Notes: generated by a model from the letters alone, not told the origin. 64,000 bases of DNA from an uncultured Gammaproteobacteria bacterium (GCA_964543035.1 CAZIVL010000002.1:58340-122339); one strand, 5' to 3'; positions 8,663 to 36,900 are shown, counted from the first letter of the stretch. Numbers and translations are program-made.

Positions 8663-8667
8663 ATAAT

Positions 8668-9715: not shown

Positions 9716-10132
9716 ATGCAAAAACCCGGGTTAACCATGATCGAGCTAACGCTGGTTTTGGGACTGGTAGTCATGCTATCGGCAATTTCGGTGGGATGGT
9801 ATTCGCGGTTTTTGACCCAAAATGCAGTGTCTGACACGACTGATTATCTGGTGGAAACACTGAGAAAGGCGCAAGTTTACACGACGTCGGGGAGGTATGA
9901 CAGCGGTTGGGGAGTGTCATATGTGGCACCTACTATTACGTTGTACGCAGTGGGTACAAGTGCGTATAACGAGACATATACTGTGAATTCCAATATCTCT
10001 ATCTCGGGACTAACTAGTATTGAATTTTCTAGTCCGGCTGGAATTCCGAGTGCGACGGCGTCTATTGTAGTTTCGGGTAACAATACTAGTAAGACGATTA
10101 CAGTTAATTCGGCTGGATCGATATCTAGATGA
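9716..10132 (+). CDS. prepilin-type N-terminal cleavage/methylation domain protein (minor pilin)
   Basis: N-terminus MQKPGLTMIELTLVLGLVVMLSAI is a class III signal peptide (G-L-T-M-I-E-L). Confidence 0.75.
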   Translation: MQKPGLTMIELTLVLGLVVMLSAISVGWYSRFLTQNAVSDTTDYLVETLRKAQVYTTSGRYDSGWGVSYVAPTITLYAVGTSAYNETYTVNSNISISGLTSIEFSSPAGIPSATASIVVSGNNTSKTITVNSAGSISR

Positions 10133-11940: not shown

Positions 11941-12446
11941 TAAAAAATAAAAACAAATTTGGTTTTACTTTGGTGGAGATTATTTTGTATATAGGGATTG
12001 TGTCTATGATACTGGTCTCTGTCTCGTCTCTGGGGTGGATAGTGGTCTCGTCTGGGGCTAAAAGTCGGGTGCAAGAAGAAGTGTCGGGGACAGCCAGATA
12101 TGTGGCGGAAAGGATTTCGTATGAAATACGAAGAGCGTCGGGGATTGGAAGCTGGTCTGCCAATAGTATTACTTTGAATAATTTTGCGCCGGATACGACG
12201 ACTGTGATTACCTGGGATTCTCCAACTGGCAAGGTGAGGATAAACAAAAACGGAACGGGATTTGTAGATTTGAATTCCAACGATACGGCGGTGACTACGC
12301 TCACTTTTACCAACAACACGTCGGTAGATAACAAGACAAAAAACATTGGATTTACTCTCACTGTATCGGCGAACACTGCTTCTGGAAGTCAAATATATAA
12401 GTCAGAGACGACAGTTAGATCGACGGTAGAATTGAGGAGTAACTGA
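11937..12446 (+). CDS. prepilin-type minor pilin
   Basis: MIKNKNKFGFTLVEIILYIGIVSMIL class III signal peptide; start overlaps the upstream stop. Confidence 0.7.
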   Translation: MIKNKNKFGFTLVEIILYIGIVSMILVSVSSLGWIVVSSGAKSRVQEEVSGTARYVAERISYEIRRASGIGSWSANSITLNNFAPDTTTVITWDSPTGKVRINKNGTGFVDLNSNDTAVTTLTFTNNTSVDNKTKNIGFTLTVSANTASGSQIYKSETTVRSTVELRSN

Positions 12447-13993
12447 TGAAAAAAAATATGCGAGGTGGCTTCATTGCCACATATTCAGTCCTGGTAGTAC
12501 TAGCAGTAGTCGCGTCTGTGGCTACGGTGACTACATATTTGGCAGTGGGAAATGCCAAGGGATCACTGTCTTTTGCCAAGGGAGTGGATGCTTTGGGATT
12601 TGCGGAAGGATGCGTGGAAGATGGACTGCTTAAGGCTCGAGCTGCTGCTACATTTGGTGATCCAGTGGGAACTATTGTAACCGTGACCAGACCAGAAGGG
12701 ACGTGTCAGCTGACTGTGGACTCTAAGGTGGGGGAGGTGTGGACGATGACGGTCACGAACTTTGTGCCGACGCCTACAATTGCGGCTACGCCTACTCCTT
12801 CGAATACGCCGACTCCTTCACCAACGCTTGCTCCAACGGCTACTCCAGCGCCTTGGCCTACTCCTACTCCTAATGGCCCAACGCCTACAGCAGGGCCGAC
12901 GTGTGTGATGCGAAATGTAAGTACGCCATTAACTGACTTGGGAGGGGGAGAGTATATGCGACTTACCACGATCAATCCCGAGACATATACAGCAACGGGG
13001 GTTATTGGGGGATTGTATCCTGGAGGAGTGAATATCCGGCCCGGAATACATAAAACAGATGGGCTGGCAGCGGCTGCCTCGATCCAACCACTTGATGCCA
13101 CCGGCGTGCCAGATGGGGAGGGACTGATCGGAATGACTTCGATCGGGATGTCAAACACGTCTACGGAATTTGGGGTGTTCAAGTCTTTGGCGGACGCCGA
13201 TTCGCAAAAAAATTCTAAAGTCAAAATCGCCAATGGGGCTTTGTCGGGGTCGGTCGTGGAAGTGTGGACGGATCCTTTGAATAATAACTTTAACTATGCT
13301 TGGAATACGCATTTACCCCAACAGATAACGCAAGCGGGGCTAACTAATGCTCAAGTGCAGGTCGCTTGGATAAAAGTGACGCAGTTTGCTTACCAACCTG
13401 ATTTTCCGGCTGCGATGGTGAATCTAAAAGGAATGTATGAAGAATTGGCTAGGCTTTTGAAAGCCAGATTTCCGAATCTGAGAATCACTTATTTTTCCAG
13501 TCGCACTCGGTCGTTTTCATATCTGGGAGGACTATCGGGTGAATCGACGGCTTTTGAAAATGCATTTGCCGTGCGGTGGATGATCGAGGATCAGATGAAT
13601 GGACTGGGAAATGTGAATTTTAATCCTAATAATGGTCCAGTTGTCGCTTCGTATATTACTTGGGGACCGTATTTGTGGATAGACGGCGAGAATGCGAGGG
13701 GTGATGGGCGAACGTGGCCTGCAAATAGTGTGGTCTCTGACTGTACTCATCCATCTACTTGGGGATCGACGATGGTGGCGGATATGTTGACCCAACACTT
13801 TAAGACTGATGAAACGGCCGCTCCTTGGTACTTGGCTGCTCCTGGAGGTACGCCCTCACCCACGCCAACTCCAACCGCGGCACCAACACCAACCCCCGCA
13901 CCTTATGTGAGCGTGCAAAATCAAAGAACGATACGAGTGATATTTAATCGGACTGGATCTGGGCTGACGCTAACTTCTTGGCAAGAGCTGTAG
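12446..13993 (+). CDS. pilus-locus protein with N-terminal hydrophobic anchor and two Pro/Thr-rich linkers
   Basis: 515 aa; N-term GFIATYSVLVVLAVV; linkers PTPTIAATPTPSNTPTPSPTLAPTATPAPWPTPTPNGPTPTAGPT and GGTPSPTPTPTAAPTPTPAP; no known catalytic motif recognised. Confidence 0.5.
   Translation: MKKNMRGGFIATYSVLVVLAVVASVATVTTYLAVGNAKGSLSFAKGVDALGFAEGCVEDGLLKARAAATFGDPVGTIVTVTRPEGTCQLTVDSKVGEVWTMTVTNFVPTPTIAATPTPSNTPTPSPTLAPTATPAPWPTPTPNGPTPTAGPTCVMRNVSTPLTDLGGGEYMRLTTINPETYTATGVIGGLYPGGVNIRPGIHKTDGLAAAASIQPLDATGVPDGEGLIGMTSIGMSNTSTEFGVFKSLADADSQKNSKVKIANGALSGSVVEVWTDPLNNNFNYAWNTHLPQQITQAGLTNAQVQVAWIKVTQFAYQPDFPAAMVNLKGMYEELARLLKARFPNLRITYFSSRTRSFSYLGGLSGESTAFENAFAVRWMIEDQMNGLGNVNFNPNNGPVVASYITWGPYLWIDGENARGDGRTWPANSVVSDCTHPSTWGSTMVADMLTQHFKTDETAAPWYLAAPGGTPSPTPTPTAAPTPTPAPYVSVQNQRTIRVIFNRTGSGLTLTSWQEL
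12775..12900 (+). repeat. coding low-complexity (Pro-Thr)n linker repeat
   Basis: ACGCCTACTCC-type degenerate tandem repeats encoding PTPTPSPT inside the 12446..13993 ORF. Confidence 0.6.
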
Positions 13994-14039: not shown

Positions 14040-14528
14040 ATGAAAACTGGTTTTAAGCGTGGTTTTACACTGATTGAACTTTTGATGGTGGTCGCGATTA
14101 TTTCTCTTTTGGCCGTATCGGTGTTTGTGGCTCTGAATCCCTCTAAGAGATTGCGTGATACTAAAGATGCGAGAAGAGCAACAGATGCGGATACGATTTT
14201 AACTGCCATTCATCAATATATTGTCGACAACAAAGGATCTTTGCCAACTGGTCTTACTACACCGATGGTTATCACAATGTTGGGAACAGGATCTGCTTGT
14301 AGTACCACTCCTGGTGCTTATTGCGGATCGGTACCGGCAGCTTGTGTGAACTTGACTACACCGTTGGCCACCTATTTGAAGAGTATGCCGATTGACCCCA
14401 ACGGAACCTCAGGAACACCAGCATTTGATGCAGCCAAGACTGGCTATGCAGTGACAGTAGACGCTAACGGTATTGTGACGGTCACTTCATGTTCTTCAGA
14501 AAATTCGGCCATTACTGTCTCCAGGTAG
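14040..14528 (+). CDS. pilA: type IV major pilin
   Basis: MKTGFKRGFTLIELLMVVAIISLLA canonical prepilin leader (G-F-T-L-I-E-L); 162 aa with a C-terminal Cys pair. Confidence 0.85.
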   Translation: MKTGFKRGFTLIELLMVVAIISLLAVSVFVALNPSKRLRDTKDARRATDADTILTAIHQYIVDNKGSLPTGLTTPMVITMLGTGSACSTTPGAYCGSVPAACVNLTTPLATYLKSMPIDPNGTSGTPAFDAAKTGYAVTVDANGIVTVTSCSSENSAITVSR

Positions 14529-15194: not shown

Positions 15195-15465
15195 GACATA
15201 CAGACCAAAAGATACTAAAGAAAGAATAATTCACAGACTAAAGATCTCCCGGGGACATCTGGATCGGGTAATAAAAATGGTAAGTGAGGACGCGTATTGT
15301 ATTGATGTCATGCATCAGCTGCAAGCCATTGAGTCAGGACTATCTGAAACTGGAAACACACTTTTGGAAAATCATTTGAAGTCGTGTGTGGCAGATGCTA
15401 TCAAGGGTGGGAGGGCACAAGAATCGATAGAGGAAATTATGCAAGTGTTTAAGAAAAAGAAATGA
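15193..15465 (+). CDS. csoR: copper-sensing transcriptional repressor CsoR (CsoR/RcnR DUF156 family)
   Basis: 90 aa; [16 protein letters not shown]...[16 protein letters not shown] with a conserved Cys-His-Cys pattern (C36/H61/C65-like). Confidence 0.85.
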
Positions 15466-17558
15466 TCAAAAAGACTTATGAAATAAAAGGAATGCACTGT
15501 GCATCTTGCGTGAGTGTGATCGAAAAAAGTCTAAAAAAAGTGCCTGGAGTAACCGATGTGGTGGCAAATCTGGCCAGTAATAAGGCTACGGTGACAATGG
15601 AACATGAGTTGCCAGAGGCCGAATTGGCAACTGCTGTAAAAAAAGTAGGGTACACCCTGGGGATAAGTGAACACGAGCATGCGAACGGATCACATGTGGT
15701 AATCCCCATGACTTTGGTGGGAGTGAGTGTAGTAATAATGCTTTGGGAGTCCTTACTGCCTATGAGTGCTTTTGTAGAAGAATTGTTTCATCATATTTTG
15801 CCACTGATGGCCACATATATGATGTTTTCTGTGGGGAGGCCATACTTATTGGGAATATGGCGGTTTTTGAAATATAAAAAGGCGGATATGGATGCACTTG
15901 TAGGAATCGGGACGGGAGTGGCGTTTCTTTATAGCTTTTGGTCATCGGTGACTGGAGGCGAATATGTATATTATGATGTGGTAATTGTGGTCATAGGGTT
16001 GGTTACCTTGGGCAAACATCTGGAAGCGGTAGCGCGAGCCCACACGTCGGATGCGATCAAAAAACTTTTGGGATTGTCACCCAAGCAAGCCCGAGTGATA
16101 CGAGGTGAAAATGAGATAGATGTGCCAATCGAACAAGTGGTTCTGGGAGACATGATCCGGGTGCGACCAGGGGAAAAAGTACCCGTGGATGGAGTGGTAG
16201 TAGAAGGTGAATCGGCGGTGGATGAATCGATGGTGACAGGAGAAAGTATGCCAATTGAGAAAAGAGTGGGTATGGATGTAATTGGGGCGACAGTGAATAA
16301 AACGGGTAGTTTTGTCATGAAGGCGAAAAGAGTCGGATCTGAGACCATACTTTCACAAATTATTAGGCTGGTCGAAGAGGCGCAAGGATCGAAAGCGCCT
16401 ATTCAGAGGCTCGCAGACTCGGTGTCAGAATATTTTGTGCCGGTAGTTTTGATACTAGCCCTGGCGACATTTCTGATATGGGGATATGTGCTGGGAGACT
16501 TCAGACAGGGAACAATCGCTGCAGTGACGGTTCTGATCATTGCTTGTCCGTGTGCGATGGGACTGGCTACACCCACGGCTATTATGGTGGGTACGGGACT
16601 GGGAGCCTCGCGGGGAATATTGATAAAAAATGCAGCTGCTTTGGAAATGGCAAATAAGGTACAAACAGTAGTGTTTGATAAAACTGGAACTCTCACTCAG
16701 GGTCGGCCTGAGGTGGTGTATTTTTCTTCTAAAAAAGTACTTGCAATTGCAGCAAGCATCGAAAAAGCTTCGGAACACGTGCTGGCAGAAGCAATAGTCC
16801 GAAAAGCTCACGATGAAGGAGTGAAACTGGAGAAGGTAACAAAGTTTGCTGCAATTGTAGGACAGGGAGTGGAGGGAGTGGTGATGGGTAAGAAGTGGGT
16901 AGTGGGTCGTGTTTTGACAAAGGAGTATGAGGAACAGGTTAGAAAATTGGAGAGCGAGGGGAATACAGTCATTTATGTGTCACAGGGAGAAAATGTAGAA
17001 GGAATAATAGCGGTTGCTGACACAGTGAAAGAAACGGCTGTGGAGGGGATATTGGTACTACAAAAATTGGGACTTGAGGTAGTGATGATGACAGGGGATA
17101 ACAAGAGGACAGCTGATGCTATTGGGACGCAACTGGAAATAGACAGGGTACTTTCTGAAGTAAAACCCGCTGACAAAGAATCTGAGGTGCGAAAGATACA
17201 GAAAGAAGGAAAAATTGTGGCTATGGTGGGAGATGGAATAAATGATGCGCCGGCACTGGCTGTTTCGGATGTGGGGATGGCTATGGGGACGGGGACTGAT
17301 GTAGCAATAGAAGCCTCATCGGTGACCCTCGTTAACCGAGATCTGAAAACAGTAGCAGCCACCATAGAGCTATCCAGAAAGACAATGAGAACAATTGTCA
17401 TGAACCTGGTCTGGGCATTTGGATACAATATTGTCCTTATACCCGTGGCCATGACGGGAAATCTAAATCCGATGCTTGCTGGCCTGGCAATGGCTCTGTC
17501 CTCGGTCTCGGTCGTGACTAACTCATTACTTTTGAAACGTGCGAAAATACATATATGA
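15462..17558 (+). CDS. copA: copper-translocating P1B-type ATPase
   Basis: 698 aa; N-terminal HMA domain [11 protein letters not shown] motif [19 protein letters not shown] phosphorylation site, GDGINDAP hinge. Confidence 0.95.
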
Positions 17559-18484
17559 ATCTGTGGGTCATACTATTTACGGGACTGACTGTGGGAGGGC
17601 TGACGTGTCTGGCTGTCCAGGGAGGACTTTTGGCTTCGATTATTGCTACAAATGAAAACAAAAATACACTGAGGCCAACCTTGATATTTTTGATGGCAAA
17701 ATTAGCGGCGCATGCTGCTTTGGGATTTGGGCTGGGGGCGTTTGGGAGTGTGGTGGGAATATCGGATAACGTTACTTTGACAGTGCAAATACTAGTCGGG
17801 GTATACATGATCTTGGTGGCACTGAATCTACTGGATATCCACCCAATATTTAGGTATGTGCAGATCCAACCGCCAAAGTTTCTGGCAAAAAAGATTAGAA
17901 CAGCATCGACTCCGGCACTTCTGGGACTCATGACGGTATTTATGCCTTGTGGAACAACTTTGGCTATGGAAGCGCTGGCGGTGGGAAGTGGAAATCCGGT
18001 AACGGGGGCTCTTATTATGGCGGTATTTGTCCTGGGGACTACACCTGCTTTTTTGGGAATTGGATACGCTTCCTCTAAACTGGGGGATAAATATAGAAAG
18101 AACTTTTTTAGACTGGCGGCCATACTGGTCATGTACTTGGGACTGTCTTCTATAAATGGAGCGTTGATTGTAAAAGGGATAAATATACTTCCTCAAAGAG
18201 AAAGTGGAGAATCAGAGACGACACAAAATGTGACTATAAATGTGATGGCTTATGGATACGAGCCGCGATATGTGAAAGTAAAACAAGGTGAGGAGGTCAC
18301 TGTGACCCTGGTCGGAAAAGGGGGATACTCTTGTGCTTCGGCATTTAGAATACCGAGCTTGTCGATTGGGAAAAACCTGCTTCCTGATGAAAAATATACT
18401 TTTTCTTTTACACCAACTAAGAAAGGTAAAATACCTTTTACTTGTTCGATGGGAATGTACACTGGCGTAATCGAGGTCATATGA
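17555..18484 (+). CDS. polytopic membrane protein (DsbD_2/TauE-like, Cys-containing) fused to a C-terminal cupredoxin-like domain
   Basis: 309 aa; about 6 TM helices with LTCLAVQGG and [11 protein letters not shown]; the C-terminal 90 aa ([25 protein letters not shown]...[14 protein letters not shown]) looks like a cupredoxin beta-sandwich. Placement between copA and copZ suggests a copper-related function. Confidence 0.5.
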
Positions 18485-18687
18485 AAATCAAAAAGAAATT
18501 GAAAATTGAGGGGATGCATTGTGCGGCGTGTGCTATGAACATAGATTTTGATGTGGAGGATATAAAAGGGGTGCTGTCATGCAAAACAAGCTACGCCCGG
18601 GCGGAGACAGAAATAGAAATGGAGGAGGGGTTGGATATGAGTCTTGTCAAAAAGGCTGTGTCAAAACTGGGATATGTCGTAAAATAG
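18481..18687 (+). CDS. copZ: heavy-metal-associated copper chaperone CopZ
   Basis: 68 aa from the ATG at 18481 (ATGA overlap with the upstream gene); GMHCAACAMNI is the MxCxxC metal-binding motif. Confidence 0.8.
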   Translation: MKIKKKLKIEGMHCAACAMNIDFDVEDIKGVLSCKTSYARAETEIEMEEGLDMSLVKKAVSKLGYVVK

Positions 18688-21287: not shown

Positions 21288-22583
21288 TTATTTTCCTTGG
21301 TATAGGGCAAAGTCTTCAGTGTGAATTGAGCGAGATTTCATCCCTAGATCTGTCAACTGCTTTTTGAGTGAATCCATCATGGGGAGTGGGCCGCAAATAA
21401 AAACGTCCCGAGACAAAAGATCTGGAACCAGAGAGGCAATCTTTTTTGCATCTAGGCGACCTGATTCTTTGGATGAATACAGATGAAAATGAAATTGGGA
21501 ATTGGTCTTTGCTTGGGTTTCAAATTCGTTGATATACACAGCTTCGTTTGGGGTTGCCACTGCATAAATAAGATCAATCGTGTAAGGACTACCCTGATCC
21601 ATGTGTCTGCACATGCTCAAAAATGGAGTGATACCGATGCCGCCTGCTATCCAGATCTGATGAATGTTGGCTGTATTGAGATATGAAAATACCCCGTAAG
21701 GACCCTCAATAAGCACATGATCCCCAGGCTTTACTAATTTGAGTGTCTCGGTGTAATCGCCTAAAGATTTGGCGGCTATGCTGATGTCTGCCGTGTTGGG
21801 GTTACTAGTAAGAGAAAATGGATGAACCTCGGAACTGACACCTTTTGAGGATACTTCTAAAAATACGAATTGACCCGGTCGGTAGGTGAGACTTTTTGTT
21901 ATTGGGGAAAGACAGATTTCGGTGACTTCGCCTATTACAGTGGAGGAAGTGATTGTAAAGGGTAATCTGCGAACCATCTTTTTGAAGAACACTGTTCTAT
22001 ATATGAATGAAATTAAGGCAAGAGCAGAGAGAATAAGAAGATATCCTTTTAGGATGTAATTTTGGTTTAGATTTCCCGGCACAATTAACATATGGACAAT
22101 AGCTGCAGCAAAAGAAATACCTAATAACTGATGTGAAAGTTTCCATAGCTGATATTTTATTTTTGTAAAAAAAGTAATGGAAAGAAGAATGATCATGATA
22201 AACAACGCGATTCCTCCAATAAGATTTGCTGGAAGTGAGCGGGAGGGGATAAAAAATTGTGCGACGAATACGATAGAGGCAGGAAGATACTCTAGCGAAA
22301 GAAGTACGGGGTGGAAAAGAAGCAAGATAAGAGATATGGCACCTATGTAATGGTGATAAAAGTATATTCGGTTTAGGCCAACAAATATCTTTTCTAAAAA
22401 GTGATATCTGGCCGAGAGAATGAAATTGAGGGCAAATAAAGCCGTGCCTACGATAGCAGTAAGTTGTCCCAGCGAAACAATGGGGCTAGAGGACGATCTT
22501 GAAAAAAAATACCAGAGAAAAACTGGGCAAATTGTTATAATCGAGACGAATATTAATCCTTGTGACTCACGAAATGACCTCAT
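21288..22583 (-). CDS. ferric reductase-like flavocytochrome (FRD transmembrane domain + FAD-binding + NAD(P)-binding FNR-like domains)
   Basis: 431 aa; N-terminal 6-TM region with conserved His (HHYIGAISL...FHPVLL ... HQLLGISFAAAIVHMLIV), then RPGQFVFLE (FAD-binding RxYS-like) and GGIGITPFLSM (NAD-binding GGxGxxP). Confidence 0.75.
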   Translation of the reverse strand: MRSFRESQGLIFVSIITICPVFLWYFFSRSSSSPIVSLGQLTAIVGTALFALNFILSARYHFLEKIFVGLNRIYFYHHYIGAISLILLLFHPVLLSLEYLPASIVFVAQFFIPSRSLPANLIGGIALFIMIILLSITFFTKIKYQLWKLSHQLLGISFAAAIVHMLIVPGNLNQNYILKGYLLILSALALISFIYRTVFFKKMVRRLPFTITSSTVIGEVTEICLSPITKSLTYRPGQFVFLEVSSKGVSSEVHPFSLTSNPNTADISIAAKSLGDYTETLKLVKPGDHVLIEGPYGVFSYLNTANIHQIWIAGGIGITPFLSMCRHMDQGSPYTIDLIYAVATPNEAVYINEFETQAKTNSQFHFHLYSSKESGRLDAKKIASLVPDLLSRDVFICGPLPMMDSLKKQLTDLGMKSRSIHTEDFALYQGK

Positions 22584-23137
22584 ATAAGTATTATCTCATA
22601 GCAGTTCTCTTGGGTGTCGTAGTAGCGGTATTTTTATTGGGGTCTTTGAAGAAGGAGGCCACCAGAGCGGTAATTGTTACCAATCTGGGAAATATTGAGA
22701 TTGAACTGAATCCCAAGACGCCAAATGCGGTTGAGCATTTTGTCATGCGGGCGAGATCTGGATATTATGCGGGAACTAGATTTCATAGAGTAGTTCCAGG
22801 TCTCTTGATAGAAGGAGGAGATCCGTTGACTTCTGATTTGGAAAACAAGATCAAATGGGGGAAGGGTGGGAGTGGAAAGCTGTTTGATGATGAGATATTT
22901 GCAGAAGACAAGATGGTGAGGGGGGTCGTGGCGATGTCGAACCATGGCAAAAATACAAATGACACTCAATTTTTTATAGTAGCGGCGGAAGAAGTGCCGT
23001 GGTTGTCTGGACTACATACAATATTTGGGCGTGTAATATCGGGAATTGAATTGGTGGAAAATATTTCACGGATGGAGGCTGGGGTGACGGGAATACCGAA
23101 TGAGGAAATAAAAGTTATTAAGATAATCCTAAGATAA
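22562..23137 (+). CDS. cyclophilin-type peptidyl-prolyl cis-trans isomerase
   Basis: 191 aa with N-terminal TM; RFHRVVPGLLIEGGDP, GVVAMSNHGKNTNDTQFFIV, GLHTIFGRVISGIELVENI. Confidence 0.9.
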   Translation: MTHEMTSYKYYLIAVLLGVVVAVFLLGSLKKEATRAVIVTNLGNIEIELNPKTPNAVEHFVMRARSGYYAGTRFHRVVPGLLIEGGDPLTSDLENKIKWGKGGSGKLFDDEIFAEDKMVRGVVAMSNHGKNTNDTQFFIVAAEEVPWLSGLHTIFGRVISGIELVENISRMEAGVTGIPNEEIKVIKIILR

Positions 23138-23142
23138 CTTTT

Positions 23143-24447
23143 ATGAAACTAAACAAGATTCAAATTGCAGTGGGGGTATCGTTAGTTTTGTTTTTTGTAA
23201 CTGTCACAGGTCTAGTCGGAACAGGACTGTGGGTCATGAAATTTCAGGAGAAGAAATCTCTTCCAGAGAAGACAGAAGACGTGGTGGTAAACAGTGTCCT
23301 TTCGGTAGAGGATGTGGCGGTACATAAGACAGTTGGTGACTGTTGGATTATTATTTCCGGAAAAGTATATGCTGTGTCTGGTTATCTGGGAACACATCCT
23401 GGAGGGGCGCTAGTAATTGCTCCGTACTGTGGAAAAGATGCAACTGAGGCATTTGCAACTAAGGGACGAATGCCTGCAGAATCACATAGTGGGACGGCGA
23501 CTGGTTTGCTGGATGAATATTTTGTAGGAAATATTGGGGAGATAATCACACAGATGGTGCCAACTACTGGGCCTACTCTTGTACCTGGACAGATAACACC
23601 GACCTCTGTATCCAAGCAATCTGTGGGAAATACAAATACTCAAGTTTCTTTGACGAATTCTGAGGTGTCGTCTCACAATACACTTTCTAACTGTTGGCTC
23701 ATCATATCTGGCAATGTATACAATGTAACTAGTTATTTGTATCAACATCCAGGAGGTGCAAGTGCGATATCTCCATACTGTGGTAAAGATGGAACTACGG
23801 CTTTTGCCACCAAAAATAAAGGTTCGTCTCACTCGTCTGTCGCAAATAATTTATTGAACAATTATTTGATAGGCACCATAGGACAGTTGGTGGTACTTGC
23901 ACCGAGTCCTACGACAGCGGTAGTAATTTTTGTACCTACGAATACCCCGGTACCACAAAATTTGACCCTAACCTCATCTGAAGTCGCAACTCACAATACG
24001 TTGCAAAACTGCTGGATGATTATCTCCAATAATGTGTACAACATTACGAGCTACGTATATCAACATCCTGGTGGGTCATCGATCTTGGCACAGTATTGTG
24101 GACGCGAAGCAACTACCGCATTTCAAACACAGGGCGGGAGGGGGAGTCACTCTAACAATGCTTCAAATTTACTGAATAATTTTCTAATAGGAACTCTGAA
24201 TTCTTCAGTAGTCGTCAACCCAACTAACACACCAGGCCCGGGAGGTACAAATCCAACTGCGACTCCAGCATCTTTTGGAGGAAGCTTGCCGGCTGCGATT
24301 ACAAACATGTACCCCGGGGCAACCAAAAAAAGTGGGGGATACGAAGATAATGGAAGTTGGGAAGGGAAGATAAATACCTCCTCTGGACAATGCAGGGAGA
24401 TGAAAGTTAATAGTTCGGGAAGTATAACTGAGAACCAAAGCTGCTAA
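23143..24447 (+). CDS. membrane-anchored protein with three tandem cytochrome b5-like heme-binding domains
   Basis: 434 aa; N-terminal TM; three repeats of about 100 aa each with HPGG and downstream SHS (VHKTVGDCWIIISGKVYAVSGYLGTHPGGALVIAPYCGKDATEAF...SHS; SHNTLSNCWLIISGNVYNVTSYLYQHPGGASAISPYCGKDGTTAF...SHS; THNTLQNCWMIISNNVYNITSYVYQHPGGSSILAQYCGREATTAF...SHS). Confidence 0.75.
   Translation: MKLNKIQIAVGVSLVLFFVTVTGLVGTGLWVMKFQEKKSLPEKTEDVVVNSVLSVEDVAVHKTVGDCWIIISGKVYAVSGYLGTHPGGALVIAPYCGKDATEAFATKGRMPAESHSGTATGLLDEYFVGNIGEIITQMVPTTGPTLVPGQITPTSVSKQSVGNTNTQVSLTNSEVSSHNTLSNCWLIISGNVYNVTSYLYQHPGGASAISPYCGKDGTTAFATKNKGSSHSSVANNLLNNYLIGTIGQLVVLAPSPTTAVVIFVPTNTPVPQNLTLTSSEVATHNTLQNCWMIISNNVYNITSYVYQHPGGSSILAQYCGREATTAFQTQGGRGSHSNNASNLLNNFLIGTLNSSVVVNPTNTPGPGGTNPTATPASFGGSLPAAITNMYPGATKKSGGYEDNGSWEGKINTSSGQCREMKVNSSGSITENQSC
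23300..24150 (+). repeat. three tandem intragenic repeats of about 300 bp (cytochrome b5 domain triplication)
   Basis: Protein-level repeat seen directly in the translation; DNA copies have diverged. Confidence 0.6.
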
Positions 24448-27398: not shown

Positions 27399-27741
27399 AG
27401 CACCTGACATCGAAGAAATAAAAAGAATTGCTGAGAAGAACTGGCCTATTGCATTGCCCTTGGTGGGTGGGCTGGCTGCAATTTCCGCTGTAGTGTATCT
27501 AACCTGGTCACTCAAGAGGCGGGCTGATGCTCATAAACAACAAGAAATTGATAAGGCTATGCAAACAGTTACAGGAATAGGAAATCCGGGAGCTTTGCTT
27601 CTGGAAGTGGCAGAAGTGCTGCCTGAGGTAGATTCAACGGCCGCTGGGATAGCTGCGAGAATGGCGAAGAAAATGAAAGGACCAAATGGTGAAGCTATGC
27701 AAGTTGTAGCTCAGAATGCAAAAACTAGGGTGATAAAGTAG
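27391..27741 (+). CDS. hypothetical membrane-anchored protein
   Basis: ORF with one TM (IALPLVGGLAAISAVVYLTW); it overlaps the VOC gene end by a few bases, so the real start is uncertain. Confidence 0.3.
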   Translation: MGKAPDIEEIKRIAEKNWPIALPLVGGLAAISAVVYLTWSLKRRADAHKQQEIDKAMQTVTGIGNPGALLLEVAEVLPEVDSTAAGIAARMAKKMKGPNGEAMQVVAQNAKTRVIK

Positions 27742-28402
27742 GAGTGGGAGTTACTTCCGGTGTGGAGACTGCGAGAGAGTTGTGGGGACTGACTTCGAGA
27801 TCAGAAAAGTAGGCGCCGGTGAGGCCGATCGCGACAAATAATGCACAGGCTATAGGAACTGCGATGGCTACTCGGGGAGAAAACTTAGGTCTGGGGAGCT
27901 TTCGCAAATTGTTTACCAATGATCTTAATTCTTCGTAAACAATAATAGTCCCGGGAACCACGACTAAGAAAATAAAACCCATGGGAGTCTTGGCAATGCT
28001 CGTTATGCGACCTACGTAGGGAACAGTGAGGAGGACCTTGCCCACTATCTTGTCCGATGCTAGCTGATTGGTGTCGAGAGAATCGTTGGCATCACCTTTG
28101 GTAACAAAACTTGGGGATTTGAAAATACCATCGGGCCAAGTCTTGGCGAGAACTCGGTGAGTAGTAGTCGTCTTGGGGCCGGAAGAAAAAGTCAAAATAT
28201 CGTTTGTAAAATACTCAGCTCTTTTTCCTACCATAATCACACTGCCTGTGGGAATGGTGGGCTCCATGGAGCCGGAAGTGACGACATAAAAACGAAAAGC
28301 ATTGACTCCTAGAAACTGATTGACAACAAAGAAGCCAGCAATAGTGAGACTCGTGTATAAAATAAAATCGGAAGCAAATTTTAGAAACTTGTTAATGGTC
28401 AT
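27725..28402 (-). CDS. sipW: signal peptidase I, SipW/archaeal-eukaryotic (S26B) type
   Basis: 225 aa; N-terminal TM, catalytic VVTSGSMEPTIPTGSVIMV (SGSMEPT Ser motif), C-terminal TM anchor; sits in an operon with TasA-like genes. Confidence 0.8.
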   Translation of the reverse strand: MTINKFLKFASDFILYTSLTIAGFFVVNQFLGVNAFRFYVVTSGSMEPTIPTGSVIMVGKRAEYFTNDILTFSSGPKTTTTHRVLAKTWPDGIFKSPSFVTKGDANDSLDTNQLASDKIVGKVLLTVPYVGRITSIAKTPMGFIFLVVVPGTIIVYEELRSLVNNLRKLPRPKFSPRVAIAVPIACALFVAIGLTGAYFSDLEVSPHNSLAVSTPEVTPTPTLSP

Positions 28403-29081
28403 ATTTCTTGGGTTTTTTGGTAGGTGTGGGAGTAGCTGTAGGCTTGGTTACACACTTTTTTTGACTGGGGCTCCAGACCCTGCCAGATCCGGTGACGGGA
28501 GTAGGAGCATCGGGACTAACTGCAATGAACTCCTCGGTAAAAGTAAGGATATCGCCCTGGGCCCAGTTGGTAACGGACTGGGGCATATGGAAGCTCTGAG
28601 TGGCCGTCACGTGCTTGTTTTTTTTTACCTCTCCCAATGGAATCCAACAAGAGACGGCATCTGGAAAGGGGAGGAGATCACCTTCTGCGATGATCGTCTT
28701 CTCACCAAATGAGAGGTCGTAATATAAATAATTTTGAATATCGGATTTGGGAACACCATTTTCTTCTTTGGATTCTGGCTCTGTCGTTGCTCCTTGGGAG
28801 GCGACGAGATTGGTTAGGTGAACAAAGACTTTGGCATCACCGTCTTTTACATATATATCTTTGTCTACATACCGATTGTCCCCGGGTTTTACATCATCTA
28901 GGCTTACGACAGTGGGGGGATTGTCTACTCCGTTGACCTTGAGGTCGATACGGCGCTCTTCGTGATGATCTCGGTCACGATGATCGCGATCATCGCGGTC
29001 ACCTAAAATCTTGGGATGATTGTTGAATGAAGAAAATATGGCAATACATCCGGCTACGAATGACTTGAAAAAATTATGCAT
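28392..29081 (-). CDS. TasA/camelysin-like paralog B (degenerate N-terminal signal, charged DRDDRDHRDRDHHEERR insert)
   Basis: Core IDLKVNGVDNP...DAVSCWIPLG...VTNWAQGD...TGSGRVW is shared with the 30006..31205 product; C-terminal PT-rich tail. Confidence 0.55.
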   Translation of the reverse strand: MHNFFKSFVAGCIAIFSSFNNHPKILGDRDDRDHRDRDHHEERRIDLKVNGVDNPPTVVSLDDVKPGDNRYVDKDIYVKDGDAKVFVHLTNLVASQGATTEPESKEENGVPKSDIQNYLYYDLSFGEKTIIAEGDLLPFPDAVSCWIPLGEVKKNKHVTATQSFHMPQSVTNWAQGDILTFTEEFIAVSPDAPTPVTGSGRVWSPSQKKCVTKPTATPTPTKKPKKYDH

Positions 29082-29155
29082 CTATTTGGCAAGTCAGAAT
29101 CCCTAACCGGGACTCTGAGCTGCCCTCCCGCTGGAAACGGGAGAGAGCAAAGAGA

Positions 29156-29992
29156 TTACTGAACTACTGGGTTACACAAGAAATCCGGGTTGTTTCTGTG
29201 CTGCTCTACTCTAAAGCGGACATCGGCAGTCAGAGAATCGGTCTGAGACTCGTTGCCCATAGATGCGCCGTCACAAGTGATTGTGAAGTTGATGCCATCG
29301 ATGGTCATTGTGCCTGCACACCAGGCCAGGCCCAGATTTTGGGTTGAACCACCTGGGAATGGAGTGGGCAGAAGAGAAGCTGAGTCTACAAGAGTATAGG
29401 TCTTGCCATTGAGAACATCGCTGGCTGGACCTTGCTCATTGGTGAACAACAAAGGCTCACCTTGCTCCCAGATATTGTCTCCATCGTCAGCCCAAGCTGT
29501 GAAATGGATATTTTGAGCCAATTCTCCTCCTTGTGGATCGTCGGTCAAATCTAGAGCTTCGACTTCAGGATCAATACGATCATTTTCAGCATTATTTAGA
29601 TTGAAAATATCGATACAGGCCCAGACGGGATTGTCTTCTACGTGCATACTGATCGTGTTTTCACCATAATCACCAGGTTTAACATCGATTAGGTCCCAGA
29701 ACTTTTCACTAGTGAGATCGCCTGCTGGCCAGGAGCCAGTACACGCCAATCCTACTAATTCTGGACGAGGTAAAACTTCGACTGATCCATCAGGCTGCCA
29801 TTGGCCGCCTTCGCAGATCATACCGTCGTAATGAGCAGTTGAGTCGATGGTGAGATCTACTTTTCCTGCTGTCAGATTGTTTGCTGGAGAAGTCTCAGTG
29901 TCTGAAAAGAAAGCTGAAGAGGCTCCCCAGACAGTCCCAGTCACTGCTCCTACTACTAACAAACTTATTAGTATGTTTTTCATTGTTGTCAT
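29156..29992 (-). CDS. TasA/camelysin (peptidase M73-like) family protein with SipW-cognate signal peptide
   Basis: 278 aa; signal MKNILISLLVVGAVTGTVWGASSAFFSDTETSPANNLTAGKVDLTI matches the SipW-cognate class (A-F-F-S-D-T-E-T, then NN..AG..DL as in TasA/CalY). Confidence 0.7.
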   Translation of the reverse strand: MTTMKNILISLLVVGAVTGTVWGASSAFFSDTETSPANNLTAGKVDLTIDSTAHYDGMICEGGQWQPDGSVEVLPRPELVGLACTGSWPAGDLTSEKFWDLIDVKPGDYGENTISMHVEDNPVWACIDIFNLNNAENDRIDPEVEALDLTDDPQGGELAQNIHFTAWADDGDNIWEQGEPLLFTNEQGPASDVLNGKTYTLVDSASLLPTPFPGGSTQNLGLAWCAGTMTIDGINFTITCDGASMGNESQTDSLTADVRFRVEQHRNNPDFLCNPVVQ

Positions 29993-30005
29993 TCACCCCC
30001 CTTCA

Positions 30006-31205
30006 CTACTGTATAGCTGTCGTACAGGAGGCACGAACCGCGTCGAGGTCGTAGCCATCTGCATCGGACGTAAATAACGCAATGTTTGAAACGTCGGTTA
30101 AGCGGACGTATTGGGCCGATGGCACGGGACTCATGTCCACTGTGCCGTCGCGGTTTAGACTCGCGGCAACGGTGGTCCAGGAAGAACCGTCAGGACCGAC
30201 TTCTACTTTTACAAGCTCATCGGGATAAGGAGGATTGGTAGCTCCTGTCACTTCGTAGACGGAAAGATCGGGGCCGGGCTGGTCGATGAAGGGACTACTA
30301 AATTTGAGAACTATAGAACCATTGGTGAAACCAAGACTAAAGAAAGAATTGGCCGCGACGGGATTGTCTGTCGGAGTGCCTGCTGATTGGGGAGCACCCA
30401 AGGCAAAATTGCCATTGCTTCTGCTGGCTAGAACTGCGGCACCACCCTTTTGAGTGCCCTGGGCGATTTGTTCAAATGAAGATGCAAAGGCGGGGATACA
30501 GGCGATGGGAGTTGGGGTCGGGGTAACCGTGGGAGAGGGAGTGATAGTCGGAGTAGGAGTAGTATTTGGGACACAGTGCTTGAGCTCGGGGTCCCAAACC
30601 CTGCCGGAGCCAGTGTCGGGGATGGTGGGATCATTTAGCTGTTGGGCTAGGAACTCTTCGGCGAAATCCAACGTGTCGCCCTGGGCCCAGTTGGTAACAT
30701 TTTTGTCAAAGTGAAAACTCTGAACTAGATTGACATGGGTGTTGCCCGGAATAGTGCCAATGGGGATCCAACAGGAGACGGCGTCGGGTAAAGATACATC
30801 GTCGGCAAAATCGATAATGACACTGGCTGATGGTGAGGATATAGAAAGGTCGTAGGTAATGTAGTTTTGGATATCAAACTTGGGAGTACCATTTTCTTCC
30901 AAATCCTCCGGTTCAGTCTGGGTGCCTTGGGTAACTTCCAGGCTTTTGATGTGCAACCAGATCTTGGTGGGATTGAAGTCCACAAATAAATCTTTGTCAA
31001 AAAATTTGTCATCACCGGGCTTGAGATCGGCAAATGACACGACTGATTCGGGATTGTCTACGCCGTTTACTTTGAGGTCGATTTTGCCGGCTGTGAAGTT
31101 GTTTGCTGTGGCTGTCTCTGTGTCTGAAAAGAAAGCGCGGGAGAGACCTATAACTGAGGGGATGGTTACACCGAGAACAATGAGGCTGGCTAGAACTTTG
31201 TTCAT
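30006..31205 (-). CDS. TasA/camelysin-like paralog C with SipW-cognate signal and extra C-terminal domain
   Basis: Start chosen at MNKVLASLIVLGV...SRAFFSDTETATANNFTAGKIDLKVNG; core shared with paralog B; PT linker TPTPTITPSPTVTPTPTP followed by a C-terminal domain of about 170 aa. Confidence 0.7.
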   Translation of the reverse strand: MNKVLASLIVLGVTIPSVIGLSRAFFSDTETATANNFTAGKIDLKVNGVDNPESVVSFADLKPGDDKFFDKDLFVDFNPTKIWLHIKSLEVTQGTQTEPEDLEENGTPKFDIQNYITYDLSISSPSASVIIDFADDVSLPDAVSCWIPIGTIPGNTHVNLVQSFHFDKNVTNWAQGDTLDFAEEFLAQQLNDPTIPDTGSGRVWDPELKHCVPNTTPTPTITPSPTVTPTPTPIACIPAFASSFEQIAQGTQKGGAAVLASRSNGNFALGAPQSAGTPTDNPVAANSFFSLGFTNGSIVLKFSSPFIDQPGPDLSVYEVTGATNPPYPDELVKVEVGPDGSSWTTVAASLNRDGTVDMSPVPSAQYVRLTDVSNIALFTSDADGYDLDAVRASCTTAIQ

Positions 31206-31337
31206 AGTATCACCATAACCTAGAGTGTCTTGGGGGATCAATTGGGACAATCAGTATCAAAGATGCACTCAAATATCTTAAAATTTTGGTTTTTTTTGAG
31301 AAATAAAGATTTGCGTGCAACAGAAATTTTATATATC

Positions 31338-36249: not shown

Positions 36250-36897
36250 ATGATCGTAATAAACTTTAAAACATATAAAGAGGCGACGGGGTACAGAGCC
36301 ATAGAGCTTTCTCGAATATGTAAAAAAATCCAAGATGAGACGGGTGTGCGAATTGTGGTGGTGCCGCAGCTGGCAGACCTCAGAAACTGTGTAGAAACTG
36401 GTGTGGACTGCTGGGTGCAGCACATTGACGCCGTAGAGCAAGGCAAGAATACGGGATATGTCACGCGTGAATCAGTGGAAGAAGCCGGAGCTCGGGGAAC
36501 GCTCTTGAATCATTCTGAGCATAAATTGCAAGAAGAAGAATTACAGAAAATTTTGAAGGAGACTGAACAACTAGCGTTTGAAACATGTGTGTGTGCGGCC
36601 GATGTGGCAGAGGCTCAAAAATGGAATGGGTTGAGACCGAACTATATTTTGTATGAACCACCGGAGTTAGTCGGAAGCACTGACAAGTCAGTAAGTACAG
36701 AAAAACCAGAAGTAATCGAGGCTGTGGTAAAAGCAGTCACACAACCTGTCCTGGTGGGAGCAGGAGTAAAAAATGCAGAAGATGTGAAAACGGCAGTGAA
36801 GCTGGGGGCGAGGGGAGTAGGACTGGCATCTGGCTTCGTGCTGAGTCAAAATCCTGAAGATGCATTGCGTGAACTGGCTTTGGGATTTAAGATATAG
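36250..36897 (+). CDS. tpiA: triosephosphate isomerase, short archaeal-type
   Basis: 215 aa; MIVINFKTYKEATG N-terminus and LLNHSEHKL (catalytic His region) resemble archaeal TIMs; the length fits the archaeal-type enzyme. Confidence 0.7.
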   Translation: MIVINFKTYKEATGYRAIELSRICKKIQDETGVRIVVVPQLADLRNCVETGVDCWVQHIDAVEQGKNTGYVTRESVEEAGARGTLLNHSEHKLQEEELQKILKETEQLAFETCVCAADVAEAQKWNGLRPNYILYEPPELVGSTDKSVSTEKPEVIEAVVKAVTQPVLVGAGVKNAEDVKTAVKLGARGVGLASGFVLSQNPEDALRELALGFKI

Positions 36898-36900
36898 CCG

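Follow-up and report, generated by a model that had tools for sequence, protein, structure and literature searches.

A NOX/FRE-type reductase gene and a gene for a membrane-tethered triple cytochrome b5 protein lie in one cassette in the 64-kb stretch of DNA analysed here (hereafter the window), and we consider it probable, though far from assured, that their products form a two-component electron-export chain. The preliminary description of this locus had proposed an undescribed extracytoplasmic electron-transfer chain. Such a chain is the best reading of our data as well, but the colocalisation of pFre and b5 genes was already known (bioRxiv 10.1101/2021.11.17.468889), and the claim of novelty does not stand in full.

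Gene layout and the NOX/FRE reductase

The three ORFs named in that description, for the reductase, a cyclophilin and the triple b5 protein, were verified at their coordinates. The reductase gene (431 aa; minus strand, 21288..22583, stop codon at 21288-21290; assigned from the ORF and Pfam) encodes an SpNOX-like NAD(P)H flavocytochrome of the NOX/FRE family, and stands head-to-head with the other two genes on the plus strand. The first of these encodes a membrane-anchored cyclophilin-type peptidyl-prolyl isomerase (22574..23137; Pfam Pro_isomerase, E 3.7e-37), whose single hydrophobic helix lies near the N-terminus (residues 11-29). The divergent start codons of the cyclophilin (ATG 22574; an alternative GTG is at 22562) and of the reductase (ATG 22583-22581) overlap, by 10 nt, and the b5 gene (434 aa; plus strand, 23143..24447; ORF, Pfam and AlphaFold) starts 5 nt past the cyclophilin stop. 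The metabolic genes seen in the 64-kb window are glycolytic and fermentative only; those of a respiratory chain, which had been expected to be missing, may lie outside a stretch of this length. The carrier of the cassette is a tiny fermentative bacterium of the CPR/Patescibacteria type.

The Pfam matches of the reductase (Ferric_reduct 42-161, FAD_binding_8 216-298 and NAD_binding_1 312-407) were all above the gathering scores. They divide the protein into a bis-haem, six-helix transmembrane domain (residues 1-205; 21969..22583, minus strand; placed by the invariant His residues and the SpNOX alignment) and a cytoplasmic dehydrogenase domain that binds FAD and NAD(P)H (residues 206-431; 21291..21968, minus strand; Pfam). 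Hydropathy also gave six hydrophobic helices. His77, His91, His151 and His164 are invariant in 119 of 119 homologues. The inner haem ligands are His77/His151 and the outer ones His91/His164, aligning with H69/H129 and H83/H142 of SpNOX. Matches of the dehydrogenase part to NCBIfam models of FNR-type reductase components were weak, far below the curated cut-offs. The sole public gene call for this protein (P0121, 267 aa) covers only the dehydrogenase part.

Hajjar et al. (2017; PMC5676040) define prokaryotic NOX/FRE proteins by the FAD-binding motif H[PSA]F[TS][LIMV] and by two haem-binding H-x12/14-H motifs in separate TM helices, with 3-7 predicted helices. The reductase has HPFSL at residues 254-258 (His254 is invariant in all 119 homologues), and its histidines are spaced H-x13-H and H-x12-H in two separate helices. 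The NAD(P)H-side motif GIGITP is at residues 315-320, where G315, G317, T319 and P320 are invariant and I316 and I318 nearly so (alignment A2). The protein thus passes all the bacterial-NOX sequence filters (HPFSL, GIGITP, His spacings and six TM helices), and the SpNOX structures 8qt6 and 8qq7 match it over its full length (phmmer, E 1e-35). By these sequence characters it is a bona fide NOX/FRE-type flavocytochrome, as had been proposed from the domains and helices; Ferric_reduct, FAD_binding_8 and three Cyt-b5 matches were recovered as anticipated, with NAD_binding_1 as the NAD(P)H part.

The reductase resembles SpNOX (8qt6/8qq7; PMC11564096, PMC11031084, PMC5676040) in size, in its six TM helices, two haems with four His ligands and FAD/NAD(P)H domain, and also in its FAD and NADPH motifs, His spacings and short external loops. 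However, the sequence similarity is distant and the TM3-TM4 loop is ∼12 residues longer in the window protein. The loops on one side of the membrane are K/R-rich, while those on the other are short and K/R-poor (6, 21 and 5 residues). In SpNOX, such short loops fold away from the haem and leave the outer haem solvent-exposed (PMC11564096, PMC11031084, PMC5676040). From the short loops of our protein we predict that its outer haem is likewise exposed. SpNOX is described without a protein partner in these papers, whereas the window reductase is linked to a gene for a dedicated, predicted extracytoplasmic haem protein.

The triple cytochrome b5 protein and its side of the membrane

Three stretches of the b5 protein match Pfam Cyt-b5 (E 1.8e-64, 214.1 bits against a gathering cut-off of 23.7). 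Domain 1 (residues 52-131; 23296..23535, plus strand) was placed from invariant columns and Pfam and has the ligands His85/His115 and the pair Cys67/Cys96; domain 2 (168-247; 23644..23883, plus strand; invariant columns) has His202/His230 and Cys184/Cys213; domain 3 (274-353; 23962..24201, plus strand; alignment A1) has His308/His336 and Cys290/Cys319. Each carries the HPGG (residues 85, 202 and 308) and SHS (114, 229 and 335) motifs noticed earlier. Conservation of the ligands, on which the first reading depended, was borne out: among the 26 full-length homologues in alignment A1 the six ligand histidines are invariant or, as for His336, nearly so, and in the related loci the HPGG His is present in 176 of 178 domain instances and the second His in 175 of 178. 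Cys290, Cys319 and His308 of domain 3 are invariant in alignment A1. Judged by their ligand residues, the domains fit the His-ligated Cyt-b5 type and not the Tyr-ligated MAPR type, and they are probably loaded with haem.

The best solved match of each domain is a bacterial protein, cytochrome b558 of Ectothiorhodospira vacuolata (1CXY; for domain 2, E 8.6e-19, 42% identity, with both His ligands and both Cys aligned). We know of no partner or function for this cytochrome. It is a single free soluble domain with HPGP in place of HPGG, whereas the window protein has three membrane-tethered domains and a linked reductase gene. In the AlphaFold (AF2) model (mean pLDDT 79.6) the domains are confident, mostly above 85, and the Pro/Thr-rich linkers are disordered. 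The top Foldseek matches of the model were all b5 structures, with 1CXY first (TM 0.92). The three domains are not equivalent: in 68 of 78 cases the nearest neighbour of a domain is at the same position in another protein, which argues for an ordered chain and against a recent repeat. Homologous chains have up to 8 b5 domains.

We also found a fourth, C-terminal domain that was absent from the preliminary description (residues 382-434; 24286..24444, plus strand; Cys417/Cys434). No PepSY-type Pfam model matched it directly in the window protein, and one homologue gave a match below threshold (E 0.024). It was assigned to the PepSY superfamily through transitive homology and fold (one helix on a four-stranded sheet); one of its structural neighbours is UipA, a metal-binding PepSY protein.

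The N-terminal membrane anchor proposed earlier is present as a signal-anchor helix (residues 8-32; 23164..23238, plus strand; hydropathy and model helix): residues 8-26 are hydrophobic with a hydropathy peak of 2.37, the AlphaFold helix spans residues 3-38, and a short MKxxK segment precedes it. Nearly all of the 26 homologues have a net charge of +2 on the N flank of the anchor, and in 20 of them the N flank carries the higher positive charge of the two, although the bias is modest (mean net charge +2.0 against +0.9). The Cys pair is found in 177 of 178 domain instances of the related loci and has no counterpart in the cytosolic b5 sequences of the same alignment. The pair in 1CXY is presumably a disulfide, and the same bond may form in these domains. 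Some homologues carry fused Big_7, Big_13, fn3 or SH3_3 domains, which are of extracellular type. The signal-anchor-like N-terminus, the Cys pairs of the domains and of the C-terminus, the extracellular-type fusions and the PepSY-superfamily domain together make an outside location of the b5 domains the best reading of the sequence.

The opposite topology would resemble that of eukaryotic microsomes, with cytoplasmic b5 domains as donors to a desaturase, hydroxylase or P450, and seems to us most improbable. Some homologues are indeed named 'cytochrome b involved in lipid metabolism' by JGI, and a P450 gene adjoins the module in a Mycolicibacterium locus. However, the anchor is N-terminal and signal-like and not a C-terminal tail anchor, and the conserved Cys pair of each domain, the Pro/Thr-rich linkers and the extracellular-type domains of homologues all point outwards, as does the seventh TM helix of the fusions described below. 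Moreover, no desaturase recurred in the flanks of 38 loci.

A different role for outward-facing b5 domains is haem or iron acquisition. The tethered domains would then be surface haem receptors or relays, comparable to tandem NEAT-domain proteins, and the reductase would supply the electrons for haem or iron release or import, or would be an independent ferric reductase. Haem binding by b5 domains is non-covalent, and the b5 protein has no twin-arginine motif, so haem would be loaded outside the cell. To our knowledge, CPR bacteria are generally thought to be without haem synthesis; the five haems needed per module would therefore have to be scavenged, which tells against the electron-export chain and would suit this role. 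The PepSY-like C-terminal domain with its metal-binding neighbour UipA is also compatible with it, and an assimilatory iron reductase role has been proposed for some MsrQ-like systems (PMC8238504). On the other hand, the invariant bis-His sites and HPGG are typical of electron carriers and not of transfer receptors, the 38 loci have no recurrent flanking gene for a haem or iron transporter, the ferric-reductase/b5 fusions suit electron hand-over, and direct ferric reduction by SpNOX is poor (3.6 per min). We regard acquisition as unlikely, if worth keeping in mind.

Linkage of reductase and b5 genes across genomes

The complete reductase/cyclophilin/triple-b5 cassette was present in four metagenome loci, which amount to three distinct cassettes with unrelated flanks (L004 and L005 have an identical b5 protein, P0011), and in 8 species-representative genomes. 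The cyclophilin gene is kept between the reductase and b5 genes in L002-L011, L017 and L020. When loci were centred on the b5 gene in species-representative genomes, a reductase gene was adjacent in at least 34 of 80, either divergent or in a reductase-then-b5 operon. In loci centred on the reductase, b5 was directly downstream in 14 of 80, and in 7 of 13 among the closest relatives; no other Pfam family recurred more than twice at that position. Two natural fusions, P0019 and L018, have 4-5 b5 domains in one chain with Ferric_reduct and a seventh TM helix. The extra helix follows a K/R-rich loop, which places the b5 domains opposite the side of a dehydrogenase domain. The co-localisation elsewhere that the first reading had called for was therefore seen in many genomes, and the linkage is not due to chance.

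Not every locus shows the linkage, which weakens the case for a chain. A reductase gene within 6 kb is missing from about half of the b5 loci, and most CPR ferric-reductase genes lack a b5 gene in their vicinity (14 of 80 have one in our set, as do 185 of 1427 genomes in the 2021 preprint). Hence the reductase can work without an adjacent b5 gene, and b5 without the reductase.

It had been stated that b5 domains are rare in bacteria. This is correct in general, but the clade of this protein is common in CPR/DPANN, and b5 relatives are encoded in 142 of 150 pattern-matching stretches of the species-representative genome set. Outside CPR, the reductase-b5 linkage occurs in a cultured Mycolicibacterium, Chloroflexia and Woesearchaeota. 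The module of the Mycolicibacterium locus adjoins a gene for a TlpA/Redoxin-type lipoprotein as well as the P450 gene. No gene for a terminal acceptor was found to travel with the module in 38 module-bearing and 36 reductase-only loci.

These observations bear on a further reading, in which the reductase acts alone as a superoxide-generating NADPH oxidase for signalling or host attack and the b5 protein is a mere neighbour of separate role. SpNOX has been assayed with O2 or cytochrome c (PMC11564096, PMC11031084, PMC5676040); alone it oxidises NADPH and consumes O2, and an adjacent b5 gene is missing in most relatives of the window reductase. Yet reductase and b5 genes are repeatedly neighbours, in two gene orders and in different phyla and domains of life, b5 is the sole recurrent downstream partner, and natural reductase-b5 fusions exist. 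In addition, the O2-binding site known from eukaryotic NOX is missing in SpNOX, and O2 has been questioned as the natural acceptor of SpNOX (PMC11564096, PMC11031084, PMC5676040). We find an autonomous oxidase very improbable.

Relation to known systems and the proposed electron route

According to a 2021 preprint, 185 of 1427 CPR genomes have a PF01794 gene and a PF00173 gene at most 10 kb apart, and pFre and b5 were proposed to form an unknown CPR-specific membrane complex (bioRxiv 10.1101/2021.11.17.468889). The window locus fits this broad count, which takes any b5 within 10 kb. It does not belong to the cytb5MY/pFre operon type of that text, where the b5 is Tyr-ligated, MAPR-like and encoded beside two-component regulators: the window b5 is His-ligated, b558-like, triplicated, PepSY-ended and preceded by a cyclophilin gene, and within the window the closest histidine kinase gene lies 15 kb from the cassette. 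The words 'extracellular', 'periplasm' and 'signal peptide', or any beginning with 'disul', do not occur in the preprint text; the passages considered here describe no fusions, and the preprint reports no case outside CPR, whereas non-CPR cases were found here.

MsrQ-like systems pair NAD-binding membrane proteins with extracytosolic flavinylated (ApbE) carriers (PMC8238504). These, and MsrQ-MsrP of E. coli, resemble the cassette in having a PF01794 protein with six helices and two haems, in many cases joined to PF00175, which is proposed to hand electrons from the cytosol to a carrier or enzyme dedicated to it on the outside; the reductase combines Ferric_reduct with NAD_binding_1, as a PF01794 membrane protein with NAD binding. 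The carrier differs, being a haem b5 where those systems have a flavinylated FMN-binding domain or a molybdoenzyme. MsrQ-like systems occur mostly in actinobacteria, and in CPR flavinylation is under-represented (PMC8238504). ApbE, FMN_bind and MsrP/molybdoenzyme genes were absent from the window neighbours and from the top 25 families of 142 flank genes. As the partner families are missing, the cassette was classed as an analogue and not as a member of the MsrQ-like or MsrPQ systems.

Flavin-based extracellular electron transfer in Listeria uses Ndh2, EetA/B and PplA, and needs quinone and flavinylated PplA. Both routes would let a monoderm cell dispose of NADH electrons by way of a surface redox protein tethered to the membrane, but in the window system one flavocytochrome would span the membrane, with haem b5 as the carrier at the surface. 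None of the Listeria-type genes (Ndh2, EetA/B, PplA) was seen near the module, in the window neighbours or in the flanks of related loci.

The b5 chain could also serve envelope repair or defence against oxidative stress by feeding, much as MsrQ feeds MsrP, an extracytoplasmic enzyme encoded elsewhere (a methionine-sulfoxide reductase, peroxidase or thiol-disulfide system). In sulfite-oxidase-family enzymes b5 is a built-in donor, and the TlpA/Redoxin-type lipoprotein gene of Mycolicibacterium would fit; the MsrQ-MsrP precedent is cited in both SpNOX papers, and b5-type carriers have been tied to the oxidative-stress response or to re-oxidation of reduced ferredoxin or NADH in CPR genomes that lack a standard electron-transport chain (PMC8080830). 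However, no such enzyme recurs beside the 38 module-bearing or 36 reductase-only loci or is present among the window neighbours, and chains of up to 8 b5 domains seem excessive for one enzyme. We consider a repair role distinctly unlikely.

In the electron-export chain that we favour, the flavocytochrome would take hydride from cytoplasmic NAD(P)H to FAD, from which single electrons would pass to the inner haem (His77/His151) and then the outer haem (His91/His164). The direct hand-over from there to the bis-His haems of the b5 protein, anchored at the outer face of the membrane, is suggested by the ferric-reductase/b5 fusions. The b5 protein would present three non-equivalent b558-type domains on Pro/Thr-rich tethers with a PepSY-type end, and the co-transcribed, membrane-anchored cyclophilin most likely aids the folding of this proline-rich exported protein. 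Such an outward flow would on balance re-oxidise NAD(P)H with neither quinones nor a respiratory chain, and would supply one-electron reducing power outside the cell. For the terminal acceptor we give about the same probability to Fe(III) or another metal, with assimilatory reduction, as to an electron sink on O2 or other oxidants from the environment or a host.

A bolder and tentative proposal, which we think improbable but not negligible, is that the module serves ultra-small episymbiotic cells as a conduit for extracellular electron transfer independent of quinones, in which one NOX-like protein would take NAD(P)H electrons across the membrane and 1 to 8 b5 beads on flexible Pro/Thr tethers would reach several nanometres outward to minerals, O2 or a host surface redox chain. 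If so, extracellular electron wires would have their first b-type, b5-based example, and NAD(P)+ would be regenerated without a respiratory chain, allowing more ATP from fermentation. What our analysis adds to the 2021 preprint is the probable position of the b5 domains outside the membrane, the architecture of three b5 domains with cyclophilin and PepSY, the fusions and the cases from outside CPR. If the proposed chain is correct, bacterial NADPH-oxidase-like enzymes would gain a candidate natural partner.

Gene content and layout of the module

All three ORFs named in the preliminary description, encoding a reductase, a cyclophilin and a cytochrome b5 (b5) protein, proved to be real in the window. 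The reductase gene (21288–22583, minus strand) encodes 431 amino acids with Pfam matches to Ferric_reduct (residues 42–161), FAD_binding_8 (216–298) and NAD_binding_1 (312–407), all exceeding the gathering scores. The protein has six hydrophobic helices; its K/R-rich loops lie on the side of the dehydrogenase domain, and the loops on the opposite side are K/R-poor and 6, 21 and 5 residues long. In an alignment with 118 homologues, His77, His91, His151, His164 and the FAD-motif His254 were invariant. SpNOX, the NADPH oxidase homologue of Streptococcus pneumoniae, is the best solved relative (full-length match, E 1e-35), and the alignment placed His77 and His151 on its inner-haem ligands, and His91 and His164 on its outer-haem ligands. 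The reductase also carries every feature of the bacterial-NOX sequence filters of Hajjar et al. (HPFSL, GIGITP and two bis-His motifs).

Only one copy of the reductase (P0121, the public gene call) was recovered for this 241,977-bp contig from the protein collection; it is 267 aa long, starts at Met165 and entirely lacks the haem-binding membrane domain. As homologues cover 97–100% of the 431-aa ORF, we take this longer form as the correct reductase. The start at Met165 conceals the ferric-reductase domain, and annotation-based surveys may therefore undercount such modules.

The cyclophilin gene (22574–23137, plus strand; Pfam Pro_isomerase, E 3.7e-37) encodes a protein with one N-terminal hydrophobic helix. 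Its ATG at 22574 overlaps the divergent reductase start (ATG 22583–22581, minus strand) by 10 nt (22574–22583), and in related loci the spacing of the two starts ranges from a 13-nt overlap to a 118-nt gap. Because the starts overlap, each promoter must be located within the opposite gene. In a consensus scan, promoter-like sites were no commoner than in shuffled sequence and no terminators were found; the operon structure is therefore read from gene spacing alone, the b5 gene beginning 5 nt past the cyclophilin gene on the same strand. An Rfam search of the window returned zero RNA families. From its conserved position and membrane anchor, we infer that the cyclophilin may serve as a folding helper.

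The b5 protein encoded downstream of the cyclophilin (23143–24447, plus strand; 434 aa) has three Pfam Cyt-b5 domains (E 1.8e-64). Its AlphaFold model, built from 26 homologues (mean pLDDT 79.6), consists of an N-terminal helix (3–38), three confident b5 domains, disordered linkers (139–164, 256–269 and 361–380) and a small C-terminal domain. The linker segments (132–167, 248–273 and 354–381) are 54–79% Pro, Thr, Ser, Gly, Asn and Gln. Both the His ligands (85/115, 202/230 and 308/336) and a Cys pair in each b5 domain (67/96, 184/213 and 290/319) are invariant or nearly so among 26 full-length homologues. Consistent with the earlier assignment of two haem-ligating His residues to each repeat, the HPGG His was present in 176 and the second His in 175 of 178 b5 domains from related loci (each Cys in 177). 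In 68 of 78 cases, the nearest relative of a b5 domain in another protein occupied the same position, which argues that the three domains are not recent copies.

The C-terminal domain (382–434) is also conserved: Tyr390, Ala393 and Asp402 do not vary, and Pro391, Cys417 and Cys434 hardly do. A Pfam search with this domain gave no direct match; modelled alone (pLDDT 85.7), it has one helix and four strands. A profile of the domain recovered 178 representative proteins, and among the multi-copy matches scanned, 8 of 10 were PepSY_like or PepSY repeat proteins according to Pfam. As the profile retrieves PepSY-type repeat proteins, we treat the domain as a divergent member of the PepSY superfamily.

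Location of the b5 domains

The b5 protein begins with a short MKxK segment followed by a hydrophobic helix, a layout resembling that of a signal anchor. In the 26 homologues, the mean net charge flanking this helix was +2.0 on the N side versus +0.9 on the C side, the N side being the more positive in 20. The closest relative of the b5 domains by both sequence (E 8.6e-19) and fold (TM 0.92) is 1CXY, a structure of cytochrome b558, which is soluble, from Ectothiorhodospira vacuolata. The two Cys positions of the domains described here are occupied by Cys in 1CXY too, where we take the pair to form a disulfide; the cytosolic b5 sequences in the same alignment are without this pair. Homologues of the b5 protein also carry Big_7, Big_13, fn3 or SH3_3 domains.

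Fused proteins bear on the same point. The protein P0019 (locus L001, 8001–10154) and an 844-aa ORF of locus L018 (5137–7668) each have a short Ferric_reduct domain, missing the dehydrogenase part, fused to four to five b5 domains. In P0019, a K/R-rich loop and then a seventh hydrophobic helix come between the six-helix domain and the b5 domains, which would put the latter across the membrane from the cytoplasmic ends of the ferric-reductase domain. The L018 fusion, found by inspecting loci, likewise has a seventh helix ahead of its b5 domains. A homologue search with P0019 retrieved multi-b5 proteins only and no additional fusion.

Any single one of these indicators is soft evidence. When the anchor, the Cys pairs, the Pro/Thr-rich linkers, the extracellular-type domains, the PepSY-type domain and the seventh helix of the fusions are combined, the sequences make it much more likely that the b5 domains sit outside than in the cytoplasm. 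We regard a cytoplasmic b5 protein as very unlikely.

Linkage of the reductase and b5 genes in other genomes

The preliminary description had proposed a co-occurrence analysis of the reductase and b5 genes; they are co-localised elsewhere, in two arrangements. In the first, which is that of the window, the reductase gene is on the strand opposite to the cyclophilin gene and to the b5 gene, of three or four domains, that follows the cyclophilin. It was present in four metagenome loci with unrelated flanks, representing three distinct cassettes (the b5 protein of L004 and L005 is identical), and in 8 species-representative genomes labelled Woesebacteria, Microgenomates or Patescibacteria, or bearing implausible automatic labels. 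One Amesbacteria and one Mycolicibacterium locus have this arrangement without the cyclophilin. The second arrangement, a co-directional operon of reductase then b5, often with overlapping genes, was found in 24 further genomes. Many metagenome-assembled genome (MAG) records with the cassette typical of Patescibacteria-type bacteria (CPR), namely L006, L011, L014, L017, L020, L024 and others, are titled 'uncultured Gammaproteobacteria' or 'Pseudomonadales'. These are third-party assemblies, and the titles look unreliable, since gene content and nearest relatives are Patescibacteria-like.

The reductase was adjacent in at least 34 of 80 b5-centred loci; at one or two reductases of this kind in a genome of ~1000 genes, we estimate that well under one adjacency would arise by chance. 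Conversely, a b5 gene lay directly downstream in 14 of 80 reductase-centred metagenome loci, and these include 7 of the 13 loci whose reductase is at least 36% identical to that of the window. Among 36 genes downstream of reductases without b5 surveyed with Pfam, no family occurred more than twice. These, together with 142 flank genes, revealed no recurrent redox enzyme or transporter as a third partner, and only lineage-specific synteny (BipA, P-type ATPases, UvrB). The linkage is thus strong, but not universal.

The partial linkage agrees with a preprint (bioRxiv 10.1101/2021.11.17.468889), which reports 185 b5-linked genomes out of 1427 CPR genomes with a ferric-reductase domain. The same preprint describes the colocalisation of genes for putative ferric reductases (pFre) and b5 in CPR, leaves its function unknown and claims its absence outside CPR. 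To call the chain undescribed, as at the outset, is therefore too strong.

Longer chains and other hosts were also observed. A 1626-aa Nomurabacteria protein (L033, 5533–10410) combines a DoxX membrane domain and five b5 domains in one chain. In three loci labelled Saccharibacteria (L013, 3507–8649; L016, 3507–9057; L019, 3078–8676), the gene after the reductase encodes a small anchored one-domain b5 protein, and the next an anchored multi-b5 protein of 1079–1210 aa with 7–8 tandem b5 domains; one-domain b5 partners in the examined loci have no PepSY-type end. The module also occurs in one Chloroflexia chromosome and one Woesearchaeota contig. The cultured, high-GC Mycolicibacterium arseniciresistens KC300 (L043, contig166, 2689–7806) has a one-domain module, in which a 450-aa reductase is divergent from a 202-aa protein that has an anchor, a single b5 domain and the C-terminal domain seen in the window protein. 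This case runs counter to the published claim of a CPR-only pairing, and genetics is feasible in this bacterium, unlike in CPR organisms. The flanks of the L043 module encode an ArsR-like regulator (judged from its sequence), a TlpA/Redoxin lipoprotein and a cytochrome P450.

Proposed electron export, candidate acceptors and meaning

The best-supported of the models is electron export, in which electrons would pass from NAD(P)H to FAD, the inner haem and the outer haem of the reductase, and from there to the b5 haems outside. Published data on SpNOX lend this plausibility (PMC11564096): the outer haem of SpNOX is strongly exposed to solvent, the O2-binding site of eukaryotic NOX is missing from it, and its turnover is 124.7 per min with cytochrome c (direct), 48 per min with O2 and 3.6 per min with iron. 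Its authors suggested, citing MsrQ–MsrP, that the physiological acceptor is perhaps not O2, a possibility raised likewise by Hajjar et al. (PMC5676040). Both SpNOX structure papers left the in vivo substrate of bacterial NOX homologues open and raised a protein acceptor as a possibility. That the reductase is instead an autonomous superoxide-forming oxidase with b5 as an unrelated neighbour is highly improbable, given the recurrent linkage and the fusions.

Electron export also has a parallel in the 'MsrQ-like' PF01794 proteins of Méheust et al. (PMC8238504), mostly with a PF00175 NAD-binding domain, whose partners are extracytosolic flavinylated carriers; flavinylation is strikingly under-represented in CPR according to the same study. 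The b5 protein described here would be the haem equivalent of these carriers. The midpoint potentials of NOX haems are much lower than those of b5, and outward electron flow is therefore expected. Electron export with protons left inside builds no conventional proton gradient; the likely benefit would thus be redox balance or external reduction, and not energy conservation. A role in building proton-motive force has been suggested for another CPR flavocytochrome (PMC8080830). For this module we discarded it on grounds of charge balance, as exported electrons and retained protons would oppose the usual gradient.

As for what lies beyond the b5 haems, no recurrent reductase, peroxidase or iron transporter was found among the window neighbours or the 142 flank genes of 38 module-bearing loci. 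A copper-handling cluster lies 3–6 kb upstream of the module (15462–18687), encoding a CopA-type P-type ATPase with an HMA domain (15462–17558), a DsbD_2 membrane domain fused to a cupredoxin-like domain (17555–18484) and an 81-aa HMA protein (18442–18687). The DsbD_2–cupredoxin fusion is an unusual candidate for transmembrane redox chemistry in its own right. P-type ATPases are close to four other modules, and the metal-binding UipA is a structural neighbour of the C-terminal domain; with the copper cluster, these are weak hints towards metals as acceptors. Haem or iron acquisition is a minor possibility. Supply of electrons to an unlinked envelope-repair or detoxifying enzyme we regard as quite unlikely.

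By its nearest homologues, the source organism is placed with the Microgenomates/Woesebacteria-like CPR. Elsewhere in the window are genes for enzymes of glycolysis and the pentose-phosphate pathway, a D-2-hydroxyacid dehydrogenase, type IV pili and peptidoglycan synthases, in keeping with a CPR cell that lives by fermentation, and no respiratory genes were found among the ~40 ORFs scanned in the 64 kb. A central-carbon cluster (36250–50842) encodes triosephosphate isomerase, GAPDH, a split transketolase, class I aldolase, a PfkB kinase and the D-2-hydroxyacid dehydrogenase. The pilus genes (6977–9714 and 14040–14528) code for a T2SSE ATPase, a T2SSF platform protein and a pilin bearing a methylation motif at its N terminus; between them are two large ORFs (10129–11940 and 12446–13993) that gave no Pfam match. 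A minus-strand run of four genes (27725–31250) may be a TasA-like fibre operon: its first gene encodes a 225-aa protein with an SGSMEPT motif resembling SipW-type signal peptidases (no Pfam match at E 0.001), and its last (30006–31250) a camelysin/TasA-type Peptidase_M73 protein. GC skew is positive in all 2-kb windows (0.06 to 0.40), with the cumulative skew climbing steadily across 1–64000, and the long ORFs are mostly on the plus strand; the stretch therefore resembles a single replication arm whose genes strongly favour one strand.

That a protein with a ferric-reductase domain can feed a partner outside the cytoplasm is, as a general idea, already established (PMC11564096, PMC8238504). 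Added here are the case for extracytoplasmic, b558-like b5 domains; a conserved layout in which triple b5 goes with a cyclophilin and a PepSY-type domain, and in which domain positions are orthologous; natural fusions, and chains with as many as eight b5 units; b5 as the sole recurrent downstream partner of the reductase; and occurrences of the module in a cultured actinobacterium, in a genome of the Chloroflexia and in an archaeon of the DPANN group. A linked, sometimes fused, extracytoplasmic b5 is a concrete candidate acceptor for bacterial NOX to which the existing SpNOX assays are applicable, and the open question on these homologues thus becomes directly testable. CPR/Patescibacteria and DPANN cells are not known to have electron-transport chains. 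If electron export holds true, as many as eight b5 domains in tandem would make an unusual b-type haem carrier, and a self-contained route by which two genes take electrons from NAD(P)H out of the cell would call for revised models of redox balance, iron supply and host dealings in CPR and DPANN.
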